IMG/VR virus record: IMGVR_UViG_3300009126_000404 | Span: 96,001 to 160,000 of that record | DNA length: 64,000 nucleotides | Reading direction: 5' to 3' (one strand) | From: a virus | Shown here: one piece after another, positions 10,739 to 59,619 of the stretch | Layout: every line of letters starts with the position of its first letter | How positions within the stretch are numbered: the first letter of the stretch is position 1 | Made by a program: the position numbers and the translations under genes | The notes under the pieces: generated by a model | The model's database searches: none | What the model saw: the letters and a program-made list of their open reading frames with translations, nothing else | Told to the model about the DNA's origin: nothing

Positions 10739-10767
10739 ATTATACGGCAAGATATCTTATTTGTCAA
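10739..10767 (-). promoter_or_regulatory. sigma70-type early promoter
   Basis: TTGACA-AATAAGATATCTTGCCG-TATAAT. Confidence 0.85.
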
Positions 10768-10780
10768 GTTTTTAAACCAC

Positions 10781-10817
10781 AAAAAAACCCTTGATTTGCA
10801 ATACAAAACAAGGGTTT
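10781..10817 (-). terminator. intrinsic terminator
   Basis: AAACCCTTG...CAAGGGTTT stem followed by U-run on the minus strand. Confidence 0.75.
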
Positions 10818-10850: not shown

Positions 10851-11072
10851 TTAGTCACGATCAAACAATTTCCACACGATTACTGCAGAAATAAGACCAA
10901 CTAGACCAGCATTCCCAAGTTGTTGAACTATTCCAATGACGGTACCAATCACATCACCACCAAGGAAAGGAACACTACCACCGAATACGACTTGTAAAAC
11001 GATCGCTAAAGATATCAACGAAACGCCAATACCTGTTGCGGCCGCAACGCCGTTTGTGATTTTATCTATCAT
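10851..11072 (-). CDS. small membrane protein (paralogue of 56458..56679)
   Basis: AGGAG SD; Gly-rich hydrophobic helices; VVFGGSVPFL motif. Confidence 0.8.
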   Translation of the reverse strand: MIDKITNGVAAATGIGVSLISLAIVLQVVFGGSVPFLGGDVIGTVIGIVQQLGNAGLVGLISAVIVWKLFDRD

Positions 11073-11097
11073 ATGTTTCTCCTATTTTTTTTATTTT

Positions 11098-11294
11098 AAC
11101 GTAACCATTTTCTTGATTTTTTGTATCTTAGGCTCGGCGGTCACTACCGGCACTTATTCTAACTTACTTTCAATTATAAAAAATCGCTTTTTTACAATCT
11201 ATCCTACGCTTTTTAGTGCGGTCGTTTGGACAAACCCGCCTTCCTTGAACCATAATATTGAGATGAAAAGTATCTCCATCGCAACCATTACGTT
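11098..11294 (-). ncRNA. candidate structured RNA / 5' leader of the membrane-protein gene
   Basis: No credible ORF; closing stem AACGTAA/TTACGTT; four hairpins including an 11-bp stem with a G.U pair and GCGA tetraloop; ATAAATA at 11311-11317 upstream. Confidence 0.5.
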
Positions 11295-11361
11295 TTCTTT
11301 TAAATCTCAGTATTTATTTGCAATTTACCTGAACTTAAATACAGGCTTTATTTAAAATAAA

Positions 11362-11523
11362 CTACTGTGATATCTTCTCTTTTATTTTTTGTGATAATTT
11401 TGCCTCTGCCGCTACTTCTGCTAACAGTTGGACTTCTTTAGGTTTAAGGTGTGGTGACATTTTCTTAATCTTTTTTGTCCACTCCTCAGTTAATTTTTGT
11501 AATTGTTTTTCGTCTTTTTTCAT
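11362..11523 (-). CDS. hypothetical 53-aa protein (absent from ORF track)
   Basis: MKKDEKQLQKLTEEW...; TAATG coupling with upstream gene. Confidence 0.65.
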   Translation of the reverse strand: MKKDEKQLQKLTEEWTKKIKKMSPHLKPKEVQLLAEVAAEAKLSQKIKEKISQ

Positions 11524-28464: not shown

Positions 28465-30482
28465 CTAAATACCCTTATGTAATCTTTTATGATTTGTTCT
28501 CTATCTTTAATATTTTCAGTAAGTTTATTCTTTTTAATAACATTTATTAATCTTTTCTCAATTGCATCAAGATTTTTTTCATGTACCTTATCTTGTTCGT
28601 CTCTTTTCTTATCACCTGCATATTGCTGATTTAAAGTCTTCTCTGTTTGTGCCATTAATGCCGACATTAAATTATCTGCATGTGGATACTTTGCTTGAAG
28701 AGCCTTTAATTGATATTGAGTTCTTGCATCAAATCCTTTTAAATCTTCTTTGCCATCTCCATCTACATCTGCTTCCATGATTTCTGGGTTAGTATCAAAC
28801 CCTTTATGTGTAAAACCAGTATAATTAGAAAGAAAATTACTTATAAATTCTTCTGTGTCTTCATATGAACCTAAATGCTTACCTGGTACATTAACTATAA
28901 CAGATTTAGGTAAGTCAAGTCCTTCAGGACCTTCACCTGTTGCAGAGTCTGTATCCCATTTAATATTTCTAACCTTAAATACCTTATCTTCGGATAATAA
29001 AGTATATAATAAATGTGGTTTTGATTCTTTAACAATTTTATAATGTCTGTCAATGAAATGTGATACTCTAGATGGATGTACTTTTACAATTTTCCCATCC
29101 TTCTGAAGTGTAACAAAATCTTCCTTAGATTCTTTATAATTAGCCATGCCATATGTTGTATTAGTAGTAGCATTTCCTTGATCATCAAATGATGAAGATG
29201 TGTGTTTACTTCCTATCTTACTCAATTTTTTCAAACCTTTCTTAATTCCTCTGCCCACAGTTCTCTTCAATGATTTATGTTTAACATATGCACTAATAAT
29301 CTTATCATCCATATCGTGTAACTTCTTCCACCATGGATTATCAAGATGAGGTATTGCTATAGGATTTCTTTTATCTGCTTCTATATCACCTTCGCCAACA
29401 ATTGCTCTACCAATAGCCTGCCCAGCTAATCTTCCTTTTTGTTTATGTTTAATGTATGCATCAATAATTTCATCACCCATAAAATGTAAATCCTTCCACT
29501 CTTGAGTGTCAAGATATGGTATAGCATGAGGATTTTTCTTATCTTTTTCCATGTTACCTTCTACTAATCCTAAATTAAACAATTTGTGCGGGTTACTATT
29601 CTTACGTGCTTTAGGCATTAAGGGTTTTATTTTACCATTGCCAAACTTAGCCGCTTCTTTTTCTGTTTGTCCTGGCTTAACATCAACTGTAGTATTAACG
29701 CCTGGAACTATAACACCATCTTCATTAATACCAACTTTTTTCAAATCACTTCTAGTAATATTTCCACCATTTTCGTGGTTTATCTTTTGAAGTTTATGAA
29801 ATTGTTCTCTTGTAGGTTTAATTCCCATTCCTTTTAAATCTGAAATAGTAAATTCTTTTAAGTTTTCTAAAACTGGATCACCATTAACTTTATTAGTTAA
29901 ATCTACATTTTCATCAATTCCTGACTTATTAGCAGTAATAACCCAATCATCATAATAGCCTTCACCATGTTCATCTACAAATGCTTGTAAGATGTCATCA
30001 TAAAGGATTAGGTCAATACTTGCAAAATCTAATGCTACTCTAGTGTCTGCTTGAGATATATCATAATTCATATCATCTTCTTTAACTTCTTGTACTTTTA
30101 ATGCTTTGTTTATATGGTCATGAATAATGTCTTGAACTTGAAATTCAGTTTGATTATCTGTATCCATATCATTAGGAATAAGTCCTTGAGCCACCATTTC
30201 ATCAACACAACGAATAGCAATATCACGTGTGTCATCGTTTGTGATTTTACCTTCGCCTAATTCTTTTTTAAATGCGTCTAAGGCTTTTTTCTTTTTATTT
30301 TTGTTCTTTGCTATATGATGAGCGGCTTGATTTGCTAACCCATCACCTGGTATTAAGTCAGGTGAAACAGTTTTAACTTCTGGCTTAGAAGTTATTTTAG
30401 TAGTTGCTTTTGGTTTCTTTTGAAACCAAGTAAGTGGGTTATACCACTCTTCATCAATTTTTGATATGTCGTCTATTCTCAT
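28461..30482 (-). CDS. putative modular internal head polyprotein (start revised to 30482)
   Basis: Leader MRIDDISKIDEE; many xE junctions; duplicated ~57-aa module. Confidence 0.65.
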   Translation of the reverse strand: MRIDDISKIDEEWYNPLTWFQKKPKATTKITSKPEVKTVSPDLIPGDGLANQAAHHIAKNKNKKKKALDAFKKELGEGKITNDDTRDIAIRCVDEMVAQGLIPNDMDTDNQTEFQVQDIIHDHINKALKVQEVKEDDMNYDISQADTRVALDFASIDLILYDDILQAFVDEHGEGYYDDWVITANKSGIDENVDLTNKVNGDPVLENLKEFTISDLKGMGIKPTREQFHKLQKINHENGGNITRSDLKKVGINEDGVIVPGVNTTVDVKPGQTEKEAAKFGNGKIKPLMPKARKNSNPHKLFNLGLVEGNMEKDKKNPHAIPYLDTQEWKDLHFMGDEIIDAYIKHKQKGRLAGQAIGRAIVGEGDIEADKRNPIAIPHLDNPWWKKLHDMDDKIISAYVKHKSLKRTVGRGIKKGLKKLSKIGSKHTSSSFDDQGNATTNTTYGMANYKESKEDFVTLQKDGKIVKVHPSRVSHFIDRHYKIVKESKPHLLYTLLSEDKVFKVRNIKWDTDSATGEGPEGLDLPKSVIVNVPGKHLGSYEDTEEFISNFLSNYTGFTHKGFDTNPEIMEADVDGDGKEDLKGFDARTQYQLKALQAKYPHADNLMSALMAQTEKTLNQQYAGDKKRDEQDKVHEKNLDAIEKRLINVIKKNKLTENIKDREQIIKDYIRVFR
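29250..29560 (-). repeat. tandem ~171-nt (57-aa) diverged module
   Basis: EKDKKNPHAIPYLD..WKDLH.M.D.II.AY.KHK vs EADKRNPIAIPHLD..WKKLHDMDDKIISAYVKHK; boundaries approximate. Confidence 0.75.
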
Positions 30483-58744: not shown

Positions 58745-58818
58745 ATATTTTTCCTTTTTTTGAAATATCAAGTGTGTGTTTTGTGTGTGATTATATTGCT
58801 ACGTGCTTTATAATATAG

Positions 58819-59178
58819 TAAGTTGATTCTGTTGCCAGGCTCAACTTACAAAACCCCTACATACCTAAATTAGGCTGCCATTGCCATTTCTGGCTCATAA
58901 TTGTTATTTGCAATTATAAATTTCTTCGCGGTAACGGCGCTTAGATCCCGACAACTCCACTAAACCTATTAAATACCAGTCGAACCTATTTCAGCCCCAT
59001 CAAAAACACTTTACAAGCAGTGACTTTACTTATCCTGTCTATTACTACGGCGTTTCGCCATTTGTACATTGTAGTAACTCTGTCCTTTATGTGTTGTCTC
59101 ATCTATAAAGTGTTTTTGGTGGAGCTGCTCGGTACCGCCCCGAGGTCCTGAATATCGTTGAGTTCGTTTCAACATTGC
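58819..59178 (-). ncRNA. ssrA: circularly permuted two-piece tmRNA, alphaproteobacterial type; tag ANNNYEPEMAMAA
   Basis: Acceptor piece ends CTCGG-GGCGGTA-CCGAG-CAGCTCC-A-CCA at 59117; coding piece starts GGGGCTG at 58998; G3.U70 pair; GGCAACAGAA near coding-piece end; outer ends approximate. Confidence 0.92.
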
Positions 59179-59202
59179 TCTTTTATTTATGATAACACAA
59201 AA

Positions 59203-59619
59203 CTAGTGTATGTCAACCGGTTTAGCGTTTATTTGTGCAGGTTCTAGGGTTTTTTTCTGGTAATCAGCTATTGCGGCCTTAATTGAGTCTTCCGCAAGTA
59301 CACTACAATGAATTTTAACTGGTGGTAAAGCAAGTTGCTCTACAATATCTGTATTCTTAATCTTTTTTGCTTCATCTAGTGTTTTACCTATGAGAACGGT
59401 AGTAACCATACTAGATGCCGCTATTGCTGAGCCACAACCGTATGTTTTAAACTTTACATCTTCAATTATATCATCTTTAACTTTAATTTGTAGTTTCATA
59501 ACGTCACCACAAGATGGTGCACCAACCATTCCGGTTCCTACATCTACATCTTTAATGTCCATTTTACCTACATTTCGTGGGTTTTCGTAATGGTCTAAAA
59601 CTTTCTTTGAATATGCCAT
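59203..59619 (-). CDS. iscU: Fe-S scaffold IscU
   Basis: GAPSCGDVMKLQI, GCGSAIAASS, LPPVKIHCSVLAED. Confidence 0.95.
   Translation of the reverse strand: MAYSKKVLDHYENPRNVGKMDIKDVDVGTGMVGAPSCGDVMKLQIKVKDDIIEDVKFKTYGCGSAIAASSMVTTVLIGKTLDEAKKIKNTDIVEQLALPPVKIHCSVLAEDSIKAAIADYQKKTLEPAQINAKPVDIH

Follow-up and report, generated by a model that had tools for sequence, protein, structure and literature searches.

A conserved, folded mRNA leader with two modules absent from Rfam precedes a small membrane-protein gene in marine myophages

Introduction

H-type pseudoknots that carry an A-rich tail are typical of small aptamers. A pseudoknot also makes up the 5′ part of the gene 32 operator of phages T4 and RB69, where it is followed by an unstructured UUAAA/UAAA tract holding the ribosome-binding site (RBS); protein binding across the RBS is cooperative and starts from the pseudoknot (PMC535899). 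A glutamine riboswitch (glnA RNA) has been reported beside the two-piece tmRNA in genomes of Melnitz-like phages and pelagimyophages (PMC9004378).

We analysed a 64,000-nucleotide stretch of DNA, hereafter the window, that comes from a 183.8-kb (~184-kb) IMG/VR virus record. Upstream of a gene coding for a 73-aa membrane protein, it contains a structured phage mRNA leader that was previously uncatalogued and that includes two defined modules, A and D, absent from Rfam. The leader is real, strand-specific, conserved, folded and non-coding; its stems covary and it is tied to this gene. We infer the promoter and the ends of the transcript, as well as any regulatory effect and the partner behind it.

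Results

Locus and putative promoter

The window is about 33% G+C and its minus strand carries nearly all genes. It also contains two tRNAs and a permuted alphaproteobacterial-type tmRNA. A gap of 289 nt separates a 53-aa ORF (11362-11523, minus strand) from the 73-aa ORF. An earlier note, made from the sequence alone, had pointed to the long interval between a late promoter core and the next SD sequence. This interval is indeed present: ~239 nt, non-coding and devoid of genes, extend from the ATAAATA core to the start codon. ATAAATA occurs 21 times on the coding (minus) strand of the window versus 6 times on the plus strand, mostly 25-50 nt 5′ of an SD followed by an ATG. This strand bias and this spacing make it reasonable to read ATAAATA as a late promoter core, as first proposed, and to consider a 239-nt leader as exceptional in length for this phage genome. 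The exact T4 late consensus, TATAAATA, is not enriched in the window (found 5, expected 16; depleted), and, in this phage, the first T of the T4 consensus seems to be missing from the late promoter.

The features of the locus are collected in Table 1. The AUAGGAG sequence is kept in every leader type, and the predicted unpaired probability of the spacer/SD region can be compared with a mean of 0.51 for the whole leader. The hairpin located 5′ to the putative promoter is retained in relatives with changed pairs (CCUA/UAGG, CUAG/CGUGG; alignment judged by eye). It may correspond to the 3′ end of the upstream transcript or to a stability element. On the other side of the 73-aa gene, the sigma70 consensus promoter of the Hydrolase_2 gene sits directly past the terminator-like hairpin.

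Table 1. Features of the leader and of its surroundings (positions in the window)
Feature	Position	Strand	Basis or remark
Hairpin CCUG..CAGG	11328..11345	-	Between stop of 53-aa ORF and late promoter
Late-promoter-like core ATAAATA, context AATAAATACUG	11311..11317	-	Sequence; invariant in 12 relatives; putative promoter activity
Hairpin H1; core 11257-11285 (GAUGGAGA-UAC-UUUUCAUC plus outer GUUG/CAAU)	11251..11293	-	Consensus fold adds ACGUAA/UUAUG
29-codon ORF (MVAMEILF...)	11199-11288	-	ORF list
Module D: stem GCGG/CCGC (11236-11239 with 11218-11221), loop GU..CGA, then ACU-AAAAAGCG-UAGGAU	11201..11240	-	Model R2
Hairpin H3, 11-12 bp, A/U-rich, GCGA tetraloop	11172..11199	-	Three different sequences fold at same place
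Module A, H-type pseudoknot	11101..11151	-	Model R1, covariation, RNAalifold (S2)
S1 of module A (GCCGG/CCGaGC)	11147-11151 with 11132-11137, A11134 bulged	-	Covariation
L1 of module A	11145-11146	-	2-nt loop
S2 of module A (GUGACCG with UGGUUAC)	11138-11144 with 11101-11107	-	29 nt before AUG
L3 of module A, A-rich	11108-11131	-	24 nt
A-rich unstructured spacer (GUUAAAAUAAAAAAAAU) + SD + start codon	11070..11100	-	Mean unpaired probability 0.79
SD AGGAG	11079-11083	-	Sequence
Start codon ATG of 73-aa gene	11070-11072	-	Sequence
73-aa Gly-rich protein, two hydrophobic helices; downstream gene of leader	10851..11072	-	ORF
Intrinsic-terminator-like hairpin + U run (AAACCCUUG..CAAGGGUUUUUUU)	10781..10817	-	Sequence; closes transcription unit
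Perfect TTGACA-17-TATAAT promoter	10739-10767	-	3′ of terminator-like hairpin
Hydrolase_2 cell-wall hydrolase, N-terminal hydrophobic segment	10049-10708	-	Next gene past TTGACA-17-TATAAT promoter

The 73-aa protein

Homologues of the 73-aa protein form 257 clusters with 64-100% identity, all unnamed and all from marine samples, and its gene is among the most conserved small genes in a large group of marine myophages. No function was obtained from Pfam, PHROGs or Atlas. Together with the neighbouring hydrolase, the protein resembles a pinholin accompanied by a signal-anchored endolysin. This reading is weak: the adjacency is confined to the window clade and holins are normally less conserved. 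In many relatives, a permuted two-piece tmRNA gene is found directly 3′ of the 73-aa gene (L030:3257-3463, L007:1172-1392, L006:3254-3480 and others). The window tmRNA is at 58817-59220, 48 kb from the 73-aa gene, and the two genes may once have been one unit.

In another group of relatives, called type B (L006, L008, L016, L028 and others), a ~45-aa single-helix ORF (ending ..FKEDDVPSK) is located ~40-180 nt upstream of the 73-aa gene. In many of them its stop codon falls within the loop of a conserved CCUU-CGAAAU-AAGG hairpin. This arrangement suggests translational coupling of two small membrane proteins in type-B relatives.

Leader designs among relatives

Blastn searches with the whole gap gave no match against 45 viral loci or against INPHARED phages, and homologues of the leader were reached only via loci gathered by the downstream 73-aa protein. 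More than 150 loci were collected in this way, comprising 45 viral contigs, 80 metagenome contigs (kept from 433 confirmed loci encoding the protein) and 30 loci found by exact-protein look-up. The whole window-type leader is present in 12 distinct marine-metagenome sequences (alignment A3, 84% mean identity). More distant lineages (L029/L142, L044, L045, L204 and the L037 group) share with the window leader only the 55 nt at its 3′ end. In them, the promoter and the 5′ part of the leader are unrelated to those of the window; H1 to H3 are missing from these distant relatives, which retain module A. L204 has the promoter region as in the window, but different short hairpins.

Across clades, the promoter preceding the leader is either of the ATAAATA type or sigma70-like. 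The commonest design, found in 57 of the 84 distinct leaders, has UAAAAC after a hairpin NNNN-CGNNNN-NNNN whose stem occurs in five covarying versions. Other relatives have long leaders behind sigma70-type promoters. In L190-L202, a TTGACA-17-TATACT promoter is followed by a ~230-nt leader made of several hairpins that ends in a CAUC-CGGAGU-GAUG + UAAAAC element before the 73-aa gene; it is unrelated to the window leader and equally long. Overall, a structured leader precedes the 73-aa gene in every lineage, with at least four interchangeable designs. This pattern points to post-transcriptional control of the gene being under strong selection.

Folding of the whole leader

The folding energy of the minus strand is -47.9 kcal/mol, corresponding to a z-score of -2.30 (3 of 200 shuffles were as good), whereas the plus strand, with a z-score of -0.31, folds no better than shuffles. 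The idea of a structured RNA specific to the minus strand, put forward in the earlier note, is therefore borne out by these values, and the region is conserved in 12 relatives, where three hairpins withstand indels and replaced sequence; every one of the minus-strand stems that the note had listed is present in the sequence. The SD is predicted to be open in the nested fold as well as in the pseudoknot-compatible fold. The energies of these two folds are close, with -47.9 kcal/mol for the former versus about -39.5 plus -7.4 kcal/mol for S2 for the latter. No terminator-like site was found between 11073 and 11320 on the minus strand.

Within the window clade, 94% of the stem cells are paired, versus 33-53% with slid partners. 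From alignment A3, RNAalifold predicted H1 with its ACGUAA/UUAUG extension, the stem of module D and, for the pseudoknot, S2. Covariation among homologues had been suggested at the outset as a check. Stems do covary across clades, but within the window clade the changes are nearly all one-sided and a shuffle control does not separate them from chance; the control is uninformative because of this one-sidedness.

No Rfam 15 family, including PreQ1, SAM-II/V, glnA, Downstream-peptide, fluoride and tmRNA, matched the leader at gathering threshold, in agreement with the initial failure to recognise a known riboswitch consensus. With E values up to 10 (801 nt and 186 nt), only chance matches were obtained; these lay on the wrong strand or concerned families that are eukaryotic or unrelated for other reasons. 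Leaders of 20 relatives also had no Rfam match, nor did the type-D leader described below at a relaxed threshold. The glnA and Downstream-peptide models matched neither the window nor 20 related loci.

The window has ORFs of 29, 27 and 20 codons. The 29-codon ORF, which would have offered a coding explanation of the region, has no ATG or ends after 4 codons in 6 of the 12 relatives, and its frame is changed in the rest (29, 39 or 43 aa). Missing or frame-shifted in half of the relatives, it does not account for the region. No ORF is common to the 12 homologous leaders.

Hairpins H1 and H3

Hairpin H1 forms in every variant, with energies from -9.4 to -17.8 kcal/mol, despite a 5-nt insertion and a rebuilt tip in one sub-clade. 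In H1, 91% of the cells are paired, with swaps among G-C, G.U and A-U that are compatible with the minus strand only. The GAGAT/ATCTC hairpin of the earlier note belongs here: it exists, as part of a longer hairpin with its outer stem.

The 11-bp stem with a GNRA loop and a single G.U pair (11173-11198), also singled out at first, is real and corresponds to H3; it has been rebuilt from other sequence in three lineages. In relatives, AUUGUAAAAAA-GCGA, UGGAAAA-GCAA or -UCAA, and AUUGGAA-AGU are observed, and the loops are GCGA, GAGA, GCAA, UCAA or AGU. An A-to-G change in relatives yields a G.U pair.

Module D

In type-D phages (L027, L161, L155, L032, L166), the leader of this gene aligns over its full length with the GCGG..CCGC hairpin of the window and the invariant AAAAAGCGUAGG that comes after it. 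Between the window and type D, which represent two clades, GGGU, CGACC and AAAAAGCG are invariant while the 4-bp stem covaries (GCGG/CCGC, GUGG/CCAC, CUGG/CCAG). The covariance model R2 was built from type-D leaders of other phages only. It matches the window at 11201-11240 with 26.1 bits and an E value of 3.8e-5; the sole other match in the window and in the 184-kb record is weak (28784-28824), lies antisense inside a 690-aa gene and was therefore taken as chance. Of the GCGG-GTTTG/CAAAC-CCGC hairpin proposed earlier, the outer GCGG/CCGC stem is present and covaries, while the inner GUUUG/CAAAC part shows no informative variation. Beside that inner part, the G/A at 11231 stays paired with the U of the downstream GGAUA tail. 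Pairing of loop and tail (UGUCC/GGAUA in the window, GUCU/AGAC in L027) would make module D a pseudoknot; its register differs between clades and two lineages offer just 3 bp. A pattern scan of IMG/VR gave no new members of module D, and no antisense partner of the conserved GUGACCGCUGAAGC was found in the window beyond chance.

Three low-GC marine Gammaproteobacteria share a ~95-nt conserved element (L234:773-870, plus strand; L235, minus strand, match 1563-1599; L265:1461-1560, plus strand). It begins with a module-D-like motif (GUGGGU..CCGACCAC-UUUAAAAAAAGCG) and has a second stem with compensatory changes (ACACG/CGUGU versus CUCG/CGAG). Each 1.6-Mb genome contains a single copy, and its neighbouring genes are not the same. 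The element has no Rfam family and was not detected as a tmRNA by ARAGORN or Rfam. R2 found it in 4 of the 81 genomes of that gammaproteobacterial family, which rules out a universal housekeeping RNA; it may be a small RNA of a previously unrecognised kind. Kinship of this element with module D is uncertain, the loci having been picked by pattern.

Module A

The covariance model R1 was derived from 8 non-window phage sequences and includes S1 only. Its match at 11070-11155 (33.7 bits, E value 1.2e-5) is the only one in the 184-kb record. Over 155 related loci, every R1 match belongs to this leader type and sits immediately upstream of the 73-aa gene. Besides the known loci before the 73-aa gene, a pattern scan of IMG/VR for module A returned only chance matches in high-GC coding sequence. 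The shared element consists of S1 (GCUCAG/CUG(A)AGC), a 2-nt L1, and S2 (GUGACCG), which abuts S1 and has CGGUCAC as partner. The A-rich loop before the 3′ strand of S2 is variable, with 20-27 nt, and S2 ends 19-29 nt 5′ of the AUG. The CGGU/ACCG hairpin that had been drawn in this region is not conserved; its bases form instead the two pseudoknot stems common to distant phages.

In A6, a model-guided alignment of 18 sequences, 91% of the cells pair versus 27-46% with slid partners. Column 9/24 of S1 shows GC, AU, GU and UA. S2, although absent from R1, reaches 97.6% pairing, one position being AU, GC or GU. In the window clade, one U-A pair has been deleted on both sides at once. About 10% of the paired cells in module A are G.U, which restricts the structure to the mRNA-sense strand. 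L1 and L3 are variable in both sequence and length, and only a bulged A is fixed. Module A is represented by a small number of independent lineages, about five or six, and is retained where the proteins differ by ~25% and the flanks are unrelated.

Alternative pairings

GGCGG (11236-11240) had been noticed as having two mutually exclusive partners. Both pairings, with CCGC (11218-11221) or with the distal CCGCC (11136-11140), are possible in the sequence. The distal pair is G-C in 5 rows, A-U in 5 and G.U in 1. As the G-C and A-U forms follow the two sub-clades, they represent a single double-change event. A switch through GGCGG/CCGCC is hypothetical. Similarly, AACGUAA (11288-11294) can pair with UUACGUU (11098-11104), as in the closing stem proposed at first, but this pairing competes with the pseudoknot and with the H1 extension, and RNAalifold passes over it. 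The alternative pairings occur in the window clade only.

Discussion

With moderate confidence, we favour a new gene-specific leader that would act as a translational or stability element recognised by a protein or by the ribosome. The stretch would be the 5′ untranslated leader of a late monocistronic mRNA for the 73-aa membrane protein. It would consist of separately folding modules, in the order promoter, H1, module D, H3, module A, A-rich single-stranded tract, SD and AUG. Judging from the alignments, modules A and D each stand alone as leader of the same gene in other marine phage lineages, and the window clade combines them in tandem. The pseudoknot borders the ribosome-binding site on its 5′ side, 20-30 nt ahead of the AUG, and would from there set translation initiation or mRNA stability. 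A protein or the ribosome would recognise it, and the adjoining A-rich tract would be where binding lands or spreads, by analogy with the operator of T4 gene 32. Small-molecule sensing would not be involved. The variable L1 and L3 and the lack of a terminator or an anti-SD make a structural or protein-recognised element fit better than an aptamer. Since most relatives use another leader design, the function may be generic, for instance to keep the RBS free, rather than regulatory.

Another reading is a new metabolite- or ion-sensing riboswitch, single or tandem, in which module D and/or module A would be the aptamer and the alternative pairings the switch. An H-type pseudoknot with an A-rich tail would be in keeping with the usual build of small aptamers. 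In module D, the unpaired bases (GGGU, CGA, AAAAAGCG) are invariant beside a covarying 4-bp stem. The distal pair has G-C, A-U and G.U forms, the nested and pseudoknot folds are near in energy, and glutamine riboswitches have been reported in related marine phages (PMC9004378). We nevertheless consider this reading unlikely. Nothing matched in Rfam for stretches of 96-186 nt even at E values up to 10, the element is tied to one gene of non-metabolic appearance, the alternative pairings trace back to one evolutionary event confined to the window clade, and the closing stem was not chosen by RNAalifold. The SD, free in both folds, the lack of a terminator and the variable loops of module A argue against a classical riboswitch for this module, whereas the invariant unpaired bases of module D keep the possibility alive there. 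The most far-reaching version, to which we give little credit, would see modules D and A as two new classes of aptamer or protein sensor placed in tandem. Together they would give the window clade a two-input switch (GGCGG/CCGCC, AACGUAA/UUACGUU) that times production of a membrane-active, possibly lysis-related, protein universally conserved in abundant marine phages, and module D would have relatives in streamlined marine Gammaproteobacteria.

The remaining explanations would take away all or part of the RNA leader. If recent common ancestry were combined with DNA-level signals, such as the promoter, protein-binding inverted repeats and recombination scars between swapped leader cassettes, no RNA function would be needed. 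The 84% average identity of the window clade, with its weak within-clade statistics, and the wholesale swaps of leaders of this gene between lineages would agree with this. What makes it improbable to us is that module A is kept despite ~25% protein divergence and unrelated flanks. In addition, the compensatory changes, the G.U pairs and the paired deletion are RNA-level events, which a DNA palindrome or the opposite strand would show as mismatches, and the plus strand folds no better than shuffles. The region from the promoter through H3 could also be an independent small RNA gene, leaving only module A in the mRNA leader; the absence of H1 to H3 where distant relatives keep module A, and L204, with the same promoter region and different short hairpins, would fit. 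We hold such a gene to be highly improbable: H3 is not followed by a terminator (its stem is of A/U only, with no U tail in the L186 and L102 versions), a second promoter was not seen before module A, and elsewhere module D belongs to the leader of this very gene. Least plausible, to the point of being nearly discounted, is that a small upstream ORF explains the region, whether the 29-codon one or a short ORF across the pseudoknot. The window does have three such ORFs, and in some relatives a short ORF (..SVVTAEA..) runs across module A. Yet the former is lost, truncated or in another frame among the 12 relatives, and the latter runs into a UGA in lineages L037 and L045, precisely at compensatory stem changes.

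Two RNA motifs absent from Rfam are now provided with covariance models and alignments. If a ligand were found, the leader would become a new phage riboswitch. With preQ1-I, SAM-II/SAM-V and guanidine-III riboswitches, the pseudoknot shares a size of 40-55 nt, a topology in which a short G/C stem and an A-rich strand go with a hairpin loop paired to a 3′ segment, and a position just upstream of the SD; module D has a five-A run after its 4-bp stem. Unlike in these riboswitches, the SD is here outside the pseudoknot, the loop nucleotides of module A are unconserved, a single gene family is concerned and there is no Rfam match at an E value of 10. The glnA RNA of Melnitz-like phages and pelagimyophages likewise belongs to marine myophages of this ecological group; the window has a permuted tmRNA and, in many relatives, the 73-aa gene is directly upstream of the tmRNA. 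However, the element described here precedes the 73-aa gene, not the tmRNA, and the glnA model does not match it.

As in the T4 gene 32 operator, a phage mRNA leader has here a compact H-type pseudoknot bordering the ribosome-binding region on its 5′ side, and an A/U-rich single-stranded tract (UUAAAA/UAAAA) then holds an SD that is not sequestered. In the window, this tract (GUUAAAAUAAAAAAAAUAGGAG, 11079-11100), made of UUAAA/UAAA-type units with an unpaired probability of 0.79, lies between the pseudoknot and the AUG. The gene controlled in T4 codes for the ssDNA-binding protein gp32, which itself binds the operator and represses its own translation (autogenous control), whereas here it codes for a hydrophobic membrane protein of 73 aa without family. 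The pseudoknot has 51 nt with a 24-nt loop 3, compared to ~28 nt in T4, and the unstructured tract 20-30 nt (29 nt from S2 to AUG), compared to >40 in T4; in addition, modules H1, D and H3 are found upstream. Overall, the window leader resembles the T4 gene 32 operator in architecture only and is not a member of it. If its pseudoknot acts like that operator, a long-isolated mechanism would extend to a different gene class and to environmental phages.
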